64,000 nucleotides of DNA, taken from the NCBI GenBank assembly GCA_045808105.1, contig JBJMGC010000031.1:854-64853 (forward strand), in the 5' to 3' direction. This document shows positions 52,855 to 59,452 of the stretch, piece by piece. The notes under the pieces are model-generated. The model saw only the letters and a program-made list of their open reading frames with translations. It did no database searches and was not told where the DNA came from. The position numbers and the translations under genes were made by a program. Positions within the stretch are counted from its first letter, which is position 1. Each line of letters starts with the position of its first letter. Origin of the DNA: Acidobacteriaceae bacterium. GTDB lineage: Bacteria; Acidobacteriota; Terriglobia; Terriglobales; Acidobacteriaceae.

Positions 52855-55628
52855 GCCGTGCGAATTTTTATTCGCTCTTCTGCATATTTTTCGTCCTTAC
52901 CTTTGCGGCCAGTTCACCGGCTCGCGCGCAGCAGGCAGGCGGGCCTTTGCTGCGGCTGCATGAGGGATGGTGGCTTGCCTCCGGATGCGAGATCTCCTCG
53001 ACGGGCGACCGGATAGGCCAGCAATTCTCGTCTGCTTCCTACAAAGCCACACATGAATGGAGAGCGGCCGCTGTGCCGTCGACCGTATTGGCTGCGCAGA
53101 TCGCCGCAGGCGAGTTTCACGATCCTTACTATGCTCGCAACCTGCGCGCGATTCCGGGGACGGATTATCCGATTGGCGCGATCTTTTCGAGATTGCCGAT
53201 GTCGCCGAGCAGCCCGTATGCATGTCCGTGGTGGTATCGCACACGATTCACTGTGCCTGCGACAACTCGCGGGAAGGTGCTGTGGCTGCGTTTTGGGGGT
53301 ATCAACTATCGCGCGAACATCTGGGTGAACGGCCAGAAGCTAGCCGCGTCGAGCGAAGTCGCAGGCGCGTATCGCACGTATGAGTTCGATGTGACGCGAT
53401 TGCTGAAACCGGGCACGGAAAACGCAATTGCGGTTGAGACATTCGCTCCGACGGAGAACGACCTTGCGATCAACTGGGTGGACTGGAGCCCCTGCCCGCC
53501 GGACAAGGACATGGGTTTGACAGGGGACGTAGCGCTCTACACGAGCGGCCCGGTGAGTGTGCGGTCGCCAATGATCACTACGCATCTCTCGAGTTCTTCT
53601 GATACCGCAGAGCTGACAGTATATGGCGAAGTCCATAACGCGAGCGCGGAGCGAGTCAGCGGTACCGCGACAGTCTCCGTGCTTGGCATTGAGGCAGAAG
53701 AGCCGGTGAGCCTCGATCCGGGCGAGACGCGGACCATCGTCTTTGCACCTGAGCAATTTCCAAAGCTGCGGGTGCAGCATCCGCGGCTATGGTGGCCGTA
53801 TCAGATGGGAGAGCCGCATCTGGAGATGCTGCGGATGAGCTTCCGAAGCGGCGGCAGAGTCTCCGACGAGGCAGTTGCGCGAGTCGGAATTCGCGAAATC
53901 ACCTCCGAGCTGACCGACACTGGCGCGCGCCTGTTTCGTGTGAATGGACGGCCGGTGCTGATACGCGGTGGAGGCTGGTCCGGGGACATGCTGCTGCGTG
54001 AGGAGCCAAGGCGGTTGGAGCAACAGTTTGAGATGGTGCGGGACCTGCACCTGAACGCGATTCGACTGGAGGGCAAGCTCGAGACCGAGGCGTTCTATCG
54101 GCTGGCCGATGAGAACGGCATCCTGGTGATAGCCGGCTGGTGCTGTTGCGATCGATGGGAGCGATGGCCGCAGTGGACGCCGGAGAACTACACGGTGGCT
54201 GCAGCATCACTGAGAGCGCAGATGCTGCGCATCCGCAGTCATCCCAGTCTGCTGGTGTGGCTGAACGGCAGTGATAATCCGCCGCCGCCGAAGGTGGAGC
54301 AGATGTACCTGGATATCGAGCGGGAAACGCACTGGCCCAATCCCACGCTCTCTTCGGCTACAGCGCGGCCTACCACGGTTACAGGCGCAACCGGTGTGAA
54401 AATGAGTGGTCCTTACGACTACGTCGCTCCGTCCTACTGGCTAACGGACCCGAAGAAACGAGGCGGAGCGTGGGGCTTCAACACCGAGACGAGTCCGGGG
54501 CCTGCGATTCCGGTTGTCTCCAGCCTGCGGCGATTTCTTCCCGCCAGCAATCTTTGGCCGCCGAGCGACGACTGGCAGTATCACAACGGCAGTGGCGGCT
54601 TCGCAAAAACGGCGGTCTTCGATAATGCAATGAAGCAGAGCTATGGGGAGCCACATTCTTTGGCCGAGTACGAGCAGATGGCACACGCGATGGCCTATGA
54701 CGGCGAGCGCGCTATGTTCGAGGCCTATGCACGTAACAAGTACACATCGACGGGAGTGGTGCAGTGGATGCTGAACAATGCATGGCCCTCGATGATCTGG
54801 CACCTGTACGACTACTATCTCGACGCCGGAGGCGGCTATTATGGCGCACGCAAGGCGTGCGAGCCGCTGCATGTGCAGTATTCCTATGACGATCACAGTG
54901 TTGTCGTCGTGAACAGTACGTATGCAGCCGTGCCTGGGCTTCACGTCAAGGCCGCGGTGTACGATCTGCAACTTCATCCAATCTATGAACATGAAGCTGC
55001 GCTGGCGGCGGGTCCTGACAGCTCCGACCGAGCATTCGATATTCCGGCCGAGTCGCTCACGGCCAGCGGCAATCTTCATTTCGTGCGGCTGACCCTGAGT
55101 GACGCAGCTGGACGGGAGATCAGTCAGAACTTTTACTGGATTCCGTCGAACCTGGCGGAGTTCGACTGGGAGCACACTGATTATCGCTACACGCCTGCAT
55201 TGCGCGAGCCGGACCTTACCGCGTTGAAGGAACTGCCGCTCGCGCATGTTGCCGTGGAGGCCGTGAAGTTAGAGCGTGACGGTTCCGTGGCGCTTCGGTT
55301 GAGAAACGATTCCTCCGCGCTTGCCTTCCAGCTGGCGCTGCGCGCGCTGGATGAGCACAACGTGCCGGTCGTGCCGGCATTCTGGTCGGACAACTACTTT
55401 TCGCTGCTGCCTGGCGAATCGAGAACGTTGACCGTTCGCGCGTCAGCGCATCGAGGTGGGCGAATCTCCGCGATCAAGGTGACAGGATGGAACGTCAGCG
55501 ATCACCGAGTGTCGCTGAGACGAGGTGCCCGTTCTGATCAGGAGACGGTAGCGTTGCCGTTCGCGCGTGCCTCTGCCTCCGCCAGCCAGCCCCGCCTGAG
55601 CGACTCCGCAGGAATGCTCGACAGATAA
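52791..55628 (+). CDS. GH2 glycosidase, exo-beta-D-glucosaminidase (CsxA-like)
   Basis: Signal peptide; WVDWSP, IRGGGW, RLEGK, GWCCCD, WLNGSD (Asp acid/base instead of NE), GPYDY, ETSPG and QWMLN. The start is uncertain. Confidence 0.85.
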
Positions 55629-56002
55629 GGCTTGATGTCGAGGATTGGGGTGCCGTCCAGCATGTCGACCCCACGGACGTACAAATCTGCATTGTGGCGG
55701 CGGAGCAATTCCAGCACCGTGAGTCCGATCGGGTTGGGGCGGCGAGGCGATCGCGTGGCGAAGACGCCGTGCTTGCGGTTGTCCGAAGGCGGCGTGCCGA
55801 CCAGCTCAAAGGGTTGCGAGCGATCGAATTCCCAGATCACAAACAAATGGGAAAAGCCTTCAATGTCCGTGAGGCCGAGCTCGAAGTCGGGCAGAATCGT
55901 GATCACGCCTTCTGCTTCATGGCTGGCGCCAAGTCCTTTTGGTATATCGCCGGCCTGCTTATAGGGAGTGCTGACAAATCCGATGGGCCAAGGCGTAAAC
56001 AT
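55538..56002 (-). CDS. trmO: tRNA (t6A37)-N6-methyltransferase TrmO/TsaA (SAM-binding domain only)
   Basis: PIGFV, GFSHLFVIW, GVFATRSPRRPNPIGLT and [14 protein letters not shown] motifs. Confidence 0.9.
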   Translation of the reverse strand: MFTPWPIGFVSTPYKQAGDIPKGLGASHEAEGVITILPDFELGLTDIEGFSHLFVIWEFDRSQPFELVGTPPSDNRKHGVFATRSPRRPNPIGLTVLELLRRHNADLYVRGVDMLDGTPILDIKPYLSSIPAESLRRGWLAEAEARANGNATVS

Positions 56003-56086
56003 ATGAAGTTAAACCTCCATCCTGTGTGCATGCCGCCGCAAACCAGTCAGCTTGCGTCTCTATTGCATTGGACGCGCCGGGTGCAT

Positions 56087-56115
56087 TTGACGTAACAGGC
56101 CGTCCGAGTTAGCCT
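56087..56115 (+). promoter_or_regulatory. Sigma70-type promoter of the leader/sulfite reductase operon
   Basis: TTGACG (56087-56092)-N17-TAGCCT (56110-56115). The predicted +1 falls on or next to the GTG at 56123. Confidence 0.7.
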
Positions 56116-56122
56116 CAATGTA

Positions 56123-56200
56123 GTGTCACTCGTTCACATCCCGGCTGCTTGTTGCTGCAACTGTTGTTGCGCACGCGGCGGCGTGGGTGTGTTTCGATAA
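56123..56200 (+). CDS. Poly-cysteine leader peptide (25 aa, MSLVHIPAACCCNCCCARGGVGVFR)
   Basis: GTG...TGT TGC TGC AAC TGT TGT TGC...TAA, i.e. six Cys codons in seven, immediately upstream of a terminator and a sulfur-assimilation operon. Not in the supplied ORF track. Confidence 0.8.
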   Translation: MSLVHIPAACCCNCCCARGGVGVFR

Positions 56201-56236
56201 GCCAGTGATCTAACTCCATCACTCCAAGCGAATCCG

Positions 56237-56280
56237 AAGCCCCAACCGCAGCCACTCTGCAGTTGGGGCTTTTTCTTTTT
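56237..56280 (+). terminator. Attenuator terminator in the 5' leader of the sulfite reductase gene
   Basis: AAGCCCCAAC-C-GCAG-CCACT-CTGC-A-GTTGGGGCTT followed by TTTCTTTTT, about 35 bp before the ATG. Confidence 0.85.
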
Positions 56281-56313
56281 CTATCCGATCGAGCGCACAA
56301 GAAGGGAAACGGC

Positions 56314-58026
56314 ATGACCCAGGCAAGTCCCCCCAAAGAAACCCCGATGAAAGAGACAAAGGCGCAGAAGACCGAACGCCTGAAGCTCGAGAAGAATCCG
56401 TGGGAGGCGTTCGACGAGATCCAGCGATTTGCCGCGGAGGGCCGAGGCAGCGTGCTGCCGGAGTGGGCGAGCCTGTATTTCAAATGGTGGGGGATCTATA
56501 CGCAGGGGGACGGAGCCGGAGCGCTGGGCGGAAAAGGTGGTGAAGGCAAGACAAGCGAATATTTCATGCTGCGTATCCCCGTTTCAAATGGCATCCTCTC
56601 TTCCAAGCAATTGGCTGCAATTGCCGAGATAGCGCAGCGGCACGGCCGCAACCTGGCGGATATAACGGTGCGACAGGCGATTCAGCTCCACTGGCTGACG
56701 ATCGAGAGCCTGCCTGAGATTATCGAGCGGCTGGATGCGGTGGGGCTTTCGCCACGTGGTGCTTGCGGGGATGTGGTTCGCAACGTGACTGGATGTCCAC
56801 TGGCCGGTCTGGCGGCGGATCAGGTTTTCGATGCATCGCCGATTGCGCTTGCGGTGGCGCGCGCTCTGGCGGGCAATACGGAGTTCTACAATCTGCCGCG
56901 CAAGTTCAAGATTTCCGTGACCGGCTGCAGCTCGTGGTGTTCGTATCCCGAGATCAACGACATCGGCCTGTCGGCGGTCCGCCGCGGCAGTCAGGTGGGT
57001 TTCTCGGTGCGGGTTGGCGGGGGACTCTCGGCGGACCCACATCTTGGCGTGCGACTGGATGCCTTTGTGCATCCTGAGCAGGCAGTCCAGGTGGTAACTG
57101 CTATTGCGACAATATTCCGGGAACAGCAGAGTTTGCGCGAGAGCCGGGATCGTGCGCGTTTGAAGCATCTGTTTCTGAAGGAGGGATGGACGGCGGAGAA
57201 GTTTCTCAACGAGCTGCAGTTGCGGCTGCCGTTCCGGCTTGATCCGGGGGTTGAGGAGGCGGTCCCGCCGGATGTCCTGCGGGACCATGTGGGCGTTCAC
57301 CGGCAGCGGCAGGCGGACCTCTACTACGTCGGGGCTGCCGTATTGCGTGGGCGATTGACCGGCGACCAGCTTGCCGCGGCGGCAAAGCTGGCTGAGCGAT
57401 ATGGCTCAGGCGAGCTGCGAACAACCGTCATGCAGAATCTGCTGTTCGTGAACGTGCCGAAGCGGAATGTGAGTGCTCTGGTGAATGAGCTTGCGGCGAT
57501 TGATCTGCGAGTCGAGGGCTCGCAGTTCTGGCGCGGCGCCATTGCCTGCACGGGCACGGAGTTCTGCAAGCTGGCCATCACGGAAACCAAAGGCTTTGCG
57601 CGGTGGCTGGTGGAGGAGATGGAGGCGCGGCTGCCGGAATTCGATCAGCAGTTGAAGTTGCACGTGACCGGCTGCCCAAATGGTTGCGGGCAACACTGGA
57701 TTGCTGACGTGGGGATTGAGGGCAAGAAGATAAAACACAACGGTGCCCTGGTGGACGCTTACTACTTCTGCGTGGGGGGAGGTGCCGGCGGAGATGCGGC
57801 AATTGCGCGTCCGGTGGGTTATCGCTGCCCGGCAACTCTGGTGCCGGAGTCGCTGGAGCGTCTGTTGCGGGGATATTTGGAAGACCGCGATTCCAATGAG
57901 ACTCTGCGGGCTTTCTTTACCAGACAGAGTAATGACCATTTGCGCGCGCTGCTGGCGGGCGAAGTGGTTGCTGCAGTGGAGCGGGACCGGCCAGAGGGCC
58001 GAGTTCCGGTGGGGGTGGGCGAATGA
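56314..58026 (+). CDS. Ferredoxin-type sulfite(/nitrite) reductase hemoprotein (SirA-like)
   Basis: WWGIYTQ, FMLRIP, TVRQAIQLH, GDVVRNVTGCP, LPRKFK, ACTGTEFCK and TGCPNGCG (siroheme/[4Fe-4S] ligands). The Cys leader favours sulfite as substrate. Confidence 0.92.
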   Translation: MTQASPPKETPMKETKAQKTERLKLEKNPWEAFDEIQRFAAEGRGSVLPEWASLYFKWWGIYTQGDGAGALGGKGGEGKTSEYFMLRIPVSNGILSSKQLAAIAEIAQRHGRNLADITVRQAIQLHWLTIESLPEIIERLDAVGLSPRGACGDVVRNVTGCPLAGLAADQVFDASPIALAVARALAGNTEFYNLPRKFKISVTGCSSWCSYPEINDIGLSAVRRGSQVGFSVRVGGGLSADPHLGVRLDAFVHPEQAVQVVTAIATIFREQQSLRESRDRARLKHLFLKEGWTAEKFLNELQLRLPFRLDPGVEEAVPPDVLRDHVGVHRQRQADLYYVGAAVLRGRLTGDQLAAAAKLAERYGSGELRTTVMQNLLFVNVPKRNVSALVNELAAIDLRVEGSQFWRGAIACTGTEFCKLAITETKGFARWLVEEMEARLPEFDQQLKLHVTGCPNGCGQHWIADVGIEGKKIKHNGALVDAYYFCVGGGAGGDAAIARPVGYRCPATLVPESLERLLRGYLEDRDSNETLRAFFTRQSNDHLRALLAGEVVAAVERDRPEGRVPVGVGE

Positions 58027-58670
58027 GCACGCCGCTGTTGCCGGTTTTCGTGAAGCTTGAGGGGCGTCCATGCCTGGTGGTGGGCGGGGGAGCGATCGGG
58101 CTGCAGAAGGTGCGCAGTTTGGTGGAGTGTGGGGCTCATGTAACGGTGGTTGCTCCAGAGGTGCGCGATGAGCTCCGTGATCTGGACGAGCAGGGGAAGA
58201 TCGTCTGGCATCGCCGGCGCTACGTTGTGGAAGACATTCCCGGGAAGCAATTAGTGATTGCGGCGACAAGCGATCCTGAGGTGAACCACGTCGTTTATGG
58301 CGATGCCGTCGCCGCCGGAGTGCTCGCGAACGCGGTGGACGATCCGCCGTTCTGTGATTTTTATTTTGGTTCGGTGGTGCGCCGAGGCCCATTGCAGATC
58401 GGCATATCGACGGCGGGGGAGAGTCCCGCGCTGGCACAGCGATTGCGGCACAAGTTGGAGACGCTGCTCGACGAAGGGACGGGGCCGTGGCTGGAACGCC
58501 TGGGCGCGCTGAGGCGTCAGGTACTGGCCGTGCATCCGGCAGGGGAGAAGCGTAACGAGTTGCTGCGTACACTAGCGACACGCGAGGTGTGCGATGCGTC
58601 TTACTGCCCGTCGCGCACGATGGCGTTGGAGACACCACGCGAGGAACGAGGGTCCTGGTGGCTGACATGA
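58023..58670 (+). CDS. Precorrin-2 dehydrogenase / sirohydrochlorin ferrochelatase (CysG N-terminal/SirC-like)
   Basis: LPVFVKLEGRPCLVVGGG, NAVDDPPFCDF and ISTAGESPALA motifs; ATGA overlap. Confidence 0.92.
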   Translation: MSTPLLPVFVKLEGRPCLVVGGGAIGLQKVRSLVECGAHVTVVAPEVRDELRDLDEQGKIVWHRRRYVVEDIPGKQLVIAATSDPEVNHVVYGDAVAAGVLANAVDDPPFCDFYFGSVVRRGPLQIGISTAGESPALAQRLRHKLETLLDEGTGPWLERLGALRRQVLAVHPAGEKRNELLRTLATREVCDASYCPSRTMALETPREERGSWWLT

Positions 58671-59452
58671 GGGTGGCGGAAAAGGGAACTGTCTATCTGG
58701 TCGGCGCAGGACCGGGCGATCCGGAGTTGCTGACGATGAGGGCAGCCGCACTGTTGCGCTCTGCGGACCTAGTGCTGCACGACGATCTGGTGCCCGCTGC
58801 GGTGATCGCCATGGCGGGCGGACAGGCATTGGCGGTCAGCGTGGGCAAGCGTTGCGGTGTAAAGCATGTGCAGCAGCCAGAGATCCACACGCTGATGATC
58901 GATGCGGCTCGCCGGCAACTGAGCGTGGTGCGGCTGAAGAGTGGTGATCCGCTGGTGTTTGGGCGTGCCGCGGAGGAGATGGATGCGCTGCGTGCCGCGG
59001 GCGTGCCATTCGAGGTGGTGCCCGGCATTACGGCGGCGTTCGCGGCAGCGGCGCAGATTGGTTGCTCATTGACGGACCGGCGTAGTGCGTCCAGCGTAGA
59101 GCTCCACACCGGGCACAAGGCTGCCGATACAGATCAGAATGCGTTGCCGGAGTCGACGACTCGCGTGGTGTATATGCCGGGCCGTAGCTTTCGCGCAATC
59201 TCAGAGGAGCGGTTGGCGGCGGGTGATGCTGTGGCGTTGCCTTGCTGCGTGATCAGCCGCGCGGCGCAGCCTGACCAAAGCATTCAGTGGAGCACGCTAG
59301 GCGAGCTGGCAGAGGTGGTGCCCGGGCCTGCGCCGGTACTGCTTATGACAGGCTGGGCGCTGGCTGCTGCGGCTGCACGGCATGCCGACGATCCCCAAAG
59401 GGACCACGAGCCGGTGGCAGTGCCCGAGTATTCATCCGAACAGAATCTGTAA
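58667..59452 (+). CDS. cobA: Uroporphyrinogen-III C-methyltransferase
   Basis: VYLVGAGPGDPELLT, VGKRCG, VRLKSGDPLVFGR and VVPGITA motifs; ATGA overlap. Confidence 0.94.
   Translation: MRVAEKGTVYLVGAGPGDPELLTMRAAALLRSADLVLHDDLVPAAVIAMAGGQALAVSVGKRCGVKHVQQPEIHTLMIDAARRQLSVVRLKSGDPLVFGRAAEEMDALRAAGVPFEVVPGITAAFAAAAQIGCSLTDRRSASSVELHTGHKAADTDQNALPESTTRVVYMPGRSFRAISEERLAAGDAVALPCCVISRAAQPDQSIQWSTLGELAEVVPGPAPVLLMTGWALAAAAARHADDPQRDHEPVAVPEYSSEQNL

Follow-up and report, generated by a model that had tools for sequence, protein, structure and literature searches.

Does a short reading frame packed with cysteine codons decide whether the genes behind it are transcribed? The question is raised by a 64,000-nucleotide stretch of an Acidobacteriaceae genome (assembly GCA_045808105.1, contig JBJMGC010000031.1, positions 854 to 64,853 of the forward strand; hereafter the window), in which such a frame lies upstream of genes for a sulfite reductase and for siroheme synthesis. 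A preliminary description of the window had proposed a cysteine-sensing transcription attenuator at this place. By inspecting the sequence and comparing it with relatives, we found a promoter-like site, a Cys-rich open reading frame (ORF) at the 5′ end, a segment complementary to one arm of a terminator and the terminator itself, all before sulfur-assimilation genes. The element is very probably a classical trp-type transcription attenuator that senses charged tRNA-Cys.

Leader and terminator in the window and its relatives

The promoter stands where the preliminary description had placed it (TTGACG-N17-TAGCCT, 7 nucleotides (nt) before the GTG at 56123; Table 1) and matches the consensus at 8 of 12 positions. 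The 25-codon ORF with six Cys in seven codons (codons 10-16) and the strong terminator ahead of the reductase ATG (56314) were likewise confirmed. The terminator stem pairs 56236-56251 with 56257-56272, has one C-A mismatch and carries TTTTTCTTTTT at 56270-56280. Of 200 shuffled versions of the leader, 198 fold less well than the original (z -2.88). A generic promoter and terminator scan of the window listed neither the leader promoter nor the terminator, and an Rfam search of 55800-56600 (T-box, S-box and leader families) gave three matches, all far below cut-off (best 19.5 bits, cut-off 43). Cys runs are common per se, since the 3.55-Mb genome holds 86 frames with at least five Cys in eight codons, and we rejected the run alone as evidence for an attenuator. 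With a blank scan, no Rfam match and 86 Cys-rich frames, the case had to rest on relatives; judged by sequence, what goes beyond chance is the combination of parts and its conservation, not the Cys run.

A search of 151 family genomes found the reductase in 79, a tally that includes the window's genome (G000) and the unpublished G025, from which no other result is drawn. Upstream DNA of 70 of these 79 loci, together with 80 loci from named records, mostly Acidobacteriota, made 150 loci, among which 14 had no candidate and nine were dropped by eye (L057, L079, L103, L127, L131, L135, L141, L143 and L148). The leader-terminator unit was thus present at 127 of the 150 orthologous loci and at 66 of the 70 in the family sample; the four family misses comprised a 14-base upstream sequence, an operon-internal reductase, a reductase directly behind another gene and a decayed leader. 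Three leader start codons were set by hand, and removal of units at least 85% alike left 103 non-redundant units, on which the counts below are based unless stated otherwise. The median leader among them is 28 codons long, and the median number of Cys is 6 (range 2-11); 89 of the leaders follow a promoter match (TTG..-N16-19-.A...T). From the last clustered Cys there are, in the median, 12 codons to the stop and 65 nt to the terminator arm; the three stop codons are used equally (35, 34 and 34). As far as the sequences tell, the geometry of the unit is kept while the leader peptide drifts. The comparison of orthologous upstream regions thus bore out the proposal, for in-frame Cys runs, terminator and covarying antiterminator are all conserved.

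Since the units had been picked by their Cys content, we repeated the search from the promoter only. Among 126 loci, 6 were too short, 32 lacked a strict promoter and 3 lacked a start codon; in the remaining 85, an ORF of up to 40 codons with at least three Cys followed the promoter in 80, and the frame of the start codon was the richest in Cys in 77 (means 5.9, 2.1 and 0.9 for the three frames). The same promoter rule applied to the window's whole genome gave 127 sites, 7 of them with at least three Cys. That the Cys run shares its frame with the start codon next to the promoter in 77 of 85 loci speaks against a different use of the same letters, in which UGUUGY repeats are the binding site of a TRAP-like regulatory protein and the reading frame is incidental. 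The dominance of TGT, the recurrence of TGTTGT and the many TGT codons that are also paired in a leader hairpin (1:2, below) would suit such a site; TGT and TGC interchange, however, an in-frame stop always lies 5′ of the terminator, and one relative has TGA in place of TAA. We regard a protein-binding site as very unlikely.

Codon choice in the leaders is unusual. Cys is encoded by TGT 396 times and by TGC 219 times (64% TGT of 615), as against 70 and 610 in the reductase genes (10% TGT of 680) and 2058 TGT among 8677 Cys codons (24%) in the long ORFs of the window's genome. One tRNA-Cys (GCA) was found in that genome, so that TGT would be read by wobble, which may sharpen the sensing of cysteine; pairing constraints could contribute to the bias. 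The one tRNA-Cys gene found follows another tRNA-like gene, with no Cys leader visible there. The abundance of Cys (23% of leader residues, in CC and CxC clusters) would also fit a peptide that is itself the functional product, metal- or thiol-binding or an arrest peptide, with the terminator as a leaky gene end. Yet a leader may have as few as 2 or as many as 11 Cys, no residue besides Cys is shared between clades, and the 3′ part of the ORF keeps its pairing with the terminator at the RNA level, for which a simple gene end would have no use; a functional peptide is, accordingly, highly improbable.

The leader has no Shine-Dalgarno (SD) sequence, as first described, and relatives agree (median anti-SD duplex energy +0.2 kcal/mol). 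The further claim that the messenger is leaderless held in part. Where the -10 element and the start codon are 6 nt apart, a pyrimidine precedes the start codon in 17 of 21 units, whereas at 7 nt a purine does so in 18 of 24; this split fits transcription beginning seven bases beyond the -10 element, here at A56122. In 44 of the 89 promoter-bearing units the spacing is 8-15 nt, and these show no fixed start-site signal. The leader is thus predicted to be leaderless or nearly so, and for the window a 1-nt leader is the more likely. For three Acidobacteria, a share of about 13% leaderless genes has been predicted (PMC3160421). An ATG-TAG at 56118-56123, upstream of the predicted transcription start, was set aside.

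Competing helices and the position of the ribosome

An attenuator of this kind needs a second helix that excludes the terminator. The preliminary description had paired the 3′ part of the leader with the left terminator arm; its TGGG:CCCA and GTTTCG:CGAAGC helices hold, and GCGG:CCGC gives way to a top helix of 56177-56183 with 56247-56253, the whole folding at -26.9 kcal/mol under the ribosome mask described below. The top helix keeps the register conserved in relatives and has a G56180-A56250 mismatch; the relatives L089 and L002 carry a T there, and their antiterminators fold at -31.6 and -32.3 kcal/mol. The window allele may be a tighter, less inducible variant.

Across relatives, the pairing of segments 2 and 3 (Table 1) is stronger for cognate partners (median -25.1 kcal/mol) than for distant non-cognate (-19.2) or shuffled ones (-18.0), and when partners were swapped with the nearest neighbour, the cognate duplex was the better one in 68 of 103 cases and the worse one in 33. 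Cognate pairing is also favoured for segments 1 and 2 (-24.0 versus -17.5 kcal/mol; 74 better, 27 worse), and the control pairings 1:3 and upstream:3 were null. Segment 2 gave no pairing signal with the spacer alone, 5′ of the stem (median z -0.36), which indicates that the conserved antiterminator needs the terminator arm. From clade to clade, the two strands of the 2:3 core vary together: CTGGCG/CGCCAG, GGCTGCG/CGCAGCC, GCTGAGC/GCTCAGC, TCTGACGC/GCGTCAGA and TCTGGCA/TGCCAGA. In an alignment of 57 of the 103 units, 83.9% of antiterminator cells are paired (24-62% in slid controls), with two-sided changes at 9 of 12 pairs (shuffled mean 5.6; 9 reached in 1 of 500 shuffles); for the terminator, 92.3% of cells are paired, with two-sided changes at 8 of 11 pairs, and the U tract behind the stem shows almost no variation. 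A further alignment, of 24 units and including the window's clade, was inspected by eye.

We then folded the leaders on RNA ending just past the terminator loop, masked a ribosome footprint extending 12 nt as measured from the start of the A-site codon, and scored the arm as paired upstream if its mean probability exceeded 0.4. Upstream pairing of the arm occurred in 95 of 103 units when the ribosome stood on the first Cys codon, in 97 when it stood on the middle one and in 84 on the last, but in only 13 on the stop codon. The fold thus switches with the ribosome, as had been anticipated. In the window the probability of upstream pairing was 0.60-0.71 on the Cys codons and 0.08 on the stop. 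The modelled RNA has, in short, a mutually exclusive antiterminator that is free when the ribosome stands on the Cys codons and covered when it stands at the stop, more weakly in the window than in its relatives.

These results suggest the following course of events. Transcription would start at the GTG or one base before it, and the ribosome would load without an SD sequence. When cysteine is plentiful, the ribosome would reach the TAA at 56198 and cover segment 2, so that 3:4 forms and transcription ends at about 56277. When cysteine is scarce, the ribosome would stall on the Cys codons, opening the 1:2 hairpin and leaving segment 2 free; 2:3 would then be in place by the time the polymerase releases segment 4, and transcription would run on into the sulfite reductase and siroheme genes.

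Several observations weigh against this account. The 1:2 hairpin is a putative protector: its pairing is conserved, yet without a ribosome the arm is still paired upstream in 70 of 103 units at the loop stage. Once the RNA is complete, equilibrium favours the terminator in 96-103 of 103 units whatever the state of the ribosome, so that control must be kinetic; antitermination then rests on a kinetic argument, and transcript ends, ribosome footprints and the cysteine response are predictions only. The trp leader has the same imbalance at equilibrium. In the window itself, the 2:3 duplex reaches only z = -0.5 against shuffles, owing to the G56180-A56250 mismatch. Further pair types in the alignment do not exceed the shuffle (93 of 500), and near kin (at least 70% alike) pair as well as cognates do (-26.1 kcal/mol). 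Because kin are not independent and both segments and structure were defined from the same sequences, the covariation counts overstate significance.

Could the decision fall at the start of reductase translation instead of at termination? In 25 of 100 units the 3′ arm of the terminator, often GGCGGTGGG, ends no more than 16 nt before the reductase start and could serve as its SD sequence; the minimum free energy (MFE) fold of the window pairs the U tract with the reductase SD; and the mycobacterial leader Ms5788A acts on translation, not termination (10.1101/834739). In the window, however, the stem ends 45 nt before the ATG, the distance exceeds 25 nt in 54 of 100 units, the pairing of U tract and SD is largely lost in the centroid fold, and the U tract after the stem hardly varies. 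Control at translation is, thus, improbable, and we prefer termination as the point of control. Unlike that of the mycobacterial translational leaders, the Cys tract of the window pairs within the leader, not with the downstream SD, and a strong terminator lies 3′ of it. In the L028-L070 clade the GGCGGTGGG arm of the terminator may double as the reductase SD.

We also looked for RNA in seven soil metatranscriptome runs, each holding 5-19% of the sampled words and read as assembled contigs. In run X1, a contig that is 92% alike covers 56150-56274 and extends about 20 bases beyond the start of the U tract. We did not count it as expression, because contigs lack strand, ends and level, and the scattered cover of the window leaves DNA as a possible source.

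Gene context and further units

The reductase is of the NirA/SirA type and falls below every NCBIfam cut-off for sulfite or nitrite reductases, so that the label "sulfite" rests on gene context: its orthologues adjoin genes for PF01507 proteins, a CysN-like GTPase, TauE and PF03601 proteins. Its best solved relative is 1zj8, which we take to be a sulfite reductase despite its title. On the other side of the leader promoter lies the divergent trmO gene, as it does in the closest relative (L002).

Table 1. Features of the leader region and flanking genes in the window
Feature	Position	Strand	Remarks
trmO (tRNA m6t6A37 methyltransferase)	55538-56002	-	TIGR00104, above cut-off
sigma-70-type promoter	56087-56115	+	-35 TTGACG 56087-56092; 17-nt spacer; -10 TAGCCT 56110-56115
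Predicted transcription start (A)	56122	+	One base 5′ of GTG; from spacing pattern in relatives
Leader ORF, 25 codons	56123-56200	+	(V/M)SLVHIPAACCCNCCCARGGVGVFR, then stop; GTG 56123; TAA 56198-56200; without SD
Segment 1	56135-56161	+	Predicted pairing with 56166-56191 (protector hairpin) when untranslated; MFE fold
Cys control codons	56150-56170	+	TGT TGC TGC AAC TGT TGT TGC; six Cys in seven codons (3 TGT, 3 TGC)
Segment 2	56177-56198	+	5′ strand of predicted antiterminator; inside ORF, after Cys run; masked folds, covariation in relatives
Small spacer hairpin	56204-56223	+	AGTGAT/ATCACT; caps antiterminator; folds, present in close relatives
Segment 3	56232-56253	+	Predicted to pair with segment 2 (antiterminator) or segment 4 (terminator); folds
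Intrinsic terminator	56236-56280	+	Hairpin 56236-56272 and U tract 56270-56280; -24.3 kcal/mol; conserved in relatives
SD-like sequence of reductase gene	56300-56307	+	AGAAGGGA; outside terminator stem; sequence
NirA/SirA-type siroheme reductase, 570 aa	56314-58026	+	NCBIfam NirA family, E 9.5e-111, below curated cut-off
Siroheme synthase N-terminal domain protein (CysG-N)	58023-58670	+	TIGR01470, above cut-off
Uroporphyrinogen-III C-methyltransferase (CobA/CysG-C)	58667-59452	+	TIGR01469, above cut-off

The unit is found at other genes as well. In L091 and L092 it lies 3.7 kb 5′ of the reductase, heading a run of PF01507, CysN-like and PF01507 genes, and this placement indicates that the leader follows the 5′ end of the operon. 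The window's genome holds two further units. On the minus strand of contig C64 (13279; L151), a 29-codon leader with 7 Cys and a hairpin of -20.5 kcal/mol precede the gene of a 1-Cys peroxiredoxin; on the minus strand of contig C264 (9999; L152), a 26-codon leader with CCC and a strong hairpin precede a short ORF, followed by a gene for a PF03601 (YeiH-type) transporter. Among the matches listed by a pattern search of 10 near-complete family genomes, the peroxiredoxin unit occurred in at least six and the transporter unit in at least two, with Pfam run on 3 of 6 peroxiredoxins. Mask folding of 10 such units gave a clear switch in 7 (gap at least 0.57) and a weak one in 2. In Pseudomonas aeruginosa, the 1-Cys peroxiredoxin LsfA owes its name to induction by low sulfate (PMC4199769), which fits a Cys leader before such a gene.

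The same device thus likely controls the peroxiredoxin and the transporter, as a small, ribosome-run cysteine regulon. On balance, and with less confidence than for the window's element, we favour the view that this family of Acidobacteriota uses near-leaderless, TGT-biased poly-Cys transcription attenuators at several loci (sulfite reductase or whole cysDNH operons, 1-Cys peroxiredoxin, YeiH-type transporter), a terminator-based Cys counterpart of trp and his, and that in one clade the terminator doubles as a lock on the ribosome-binding site. Two observations from the window's own genome count on the other side: the transporter unit has a poor U tract, and the peroxiredoxin unit is the one of the ten that showed no switch in the mask test (0.31 versus 0.27).

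Elsewhere in that genome (85% complete), cysH (PF01507) was not found with the query used, the two best cysK matches sit at contig ends and thus have no readable leader, and contig C17, which carries cysS, showed no unit of this kind. The plus strand of contig C202 (83) carries a promoter, a 10-codon ORF with four Ser and a hairpin of -22.3 kcal/mol with a U run, the only Cys-free match of the genome scan. In genome G048 the reductase leader (L011) has decayed, with the promoter kept, one TGT followed by TGA and no terminator found; the same genome retains units before peroxiredoxin and PF03601 genes (L198, L212).

In a sample of the phylum the reductase was present in 52 of 301 genomes, with close matches confined to the family, and nine distant homologues (36-43% identity, L245-L253) had no promoter with a Cys-rich small ORF (sORF) within 1.5 kb. 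L090 and L094 carry a reduced form about 130 nt 5′ of the reductase, made up of a promoter, an ORF of 14 codons with one Cys, and a hairpin resembling a terminator. Four of the loci dropped by eye (L127, L141, L143, L148) have a small ORF with two CxxC-like motifs, then a hairpin of -32 to -35 kcal/mol and a U run; this may be another Cys-linked leader or a zinc-ribbon gene. Units very like the acidobacterial ones occur in L087, L096 and L106, titled Verrucomicrobiia, Dormiibacterota and Methylomirabilota, and the L096 leader peptide is identical to that of L098; mislabelled bins or transfer may account for them.

Precedents and significance

The logic of attenuation itself is textbook. Classical leader-peptide transcription attenuators include trp of Escherichia coli, his of Salmonella and, in Mycobacterium tuberculosis, ilvB1 (PMC13236596). 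The unit of the window shares with these a short ORF holding codons for the product, competing 1:2, 2:3 and 3:4 helices and a terminator before the first gene; it differs in its Cys codons, its sulfur-assimilation target, an ORF without SD at or near the 5′ end and the lack of an Rfam match. Leaderless leaders with terminators are reported for trp, ilv and leu genes of Streptomyces (PMC8079986).

For cysteine, the preliminary description knew of no terminator-based attenuator in Acidobacteriota. We likewise found no description of an acidobacterial one in searches of full-text literature, a scope that excludes subscription papers. A Cys attenuator of the terminator type has, however, already been published as a prediction: in front of cysS of Rhodobacterales, Brewer et al. 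(2021, PMC8632094) predicted uORFC-8-2, an upstream ORF (uORF) with Cys codons and an intrinsic terminator. By description, and without sequence comparison, the two are alike in predicted ribosome-mediated attenuation, Cys codons and intrinsic terminator. uORFC-8-2 has two tandem Cys codons, mostly UGC, at about positions 14-15, controls a tRNA synthetase and is described only in Rhodobacterales, whereas the window's unit precedes a sulfite reductase and has six Cys; the word "antiterminator" is absent from the main text of that paper. A leaderless leader peptide before cysS of Deinococcus deserti, likewise Cys-bearing, was proposed for transcription attenuation (De Groot et al., PMC4007540); it has ten residues with two Cys, and the text seen describes no RNA switch.

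The closest parallel in layout is mycobacterial. Leaderless poly-Cys sORFs there were shown to respond to cysteine and to act on translation by hiding the SD, not on termination (Canestrari et al., 10.1101/834739), and Seliverstov et al. had predicted mycobacterial Cys leaders and found no terminators (PMC1262725). As in the mycobacterial "Cys ribulon", poly-Cys sORFs, here predicted to be leaderless or nearly so, stand before several cysteine-related operons in one genome; unlike the mycobacterial sORFs, reported without a conserved terminator hairpin, the acidobacterial units have a terminator and covarying antiterminator as their conserved core. Canestrari et al. stated in 2020 that uORF attenuation for cysteine had not previously been described (10.1101/834739). 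Term look-ups in PMC4833913, PMC2965389, PMC13236596 and PMC11109978 (main text only) gave nothing on the element, and the supplement of PMC2965389 has no acidobacterial entry among its 8 "sulfite", 11 "peroxi" and 1 "phosphosulfate" rows, the acidobacterial rows examined being 15 of 63 and 15 of 77. Each ingredient thus has a precedent, and their union on sulfur-assimilation genes in Acidobacteriota is not found in the literature searched.

Cysteine is a gap among the proven transcription attenuators, as the mycobacterial proof is translational and the terminator type is only predicted, at cysS. The unit is present in a cultured isolate, Acidobacteriaceae bacterium KBS 83 (L072), and this carrier, together with more than 100 natural variants with covarying helices, makes the question directly testable. 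If the reading is true, leaderless initiation would be able to drive kinetic coupling to a terminator, and the unit would show how sulfur assimilation is controlled in an abundant and little-studied group of soil bacteria.

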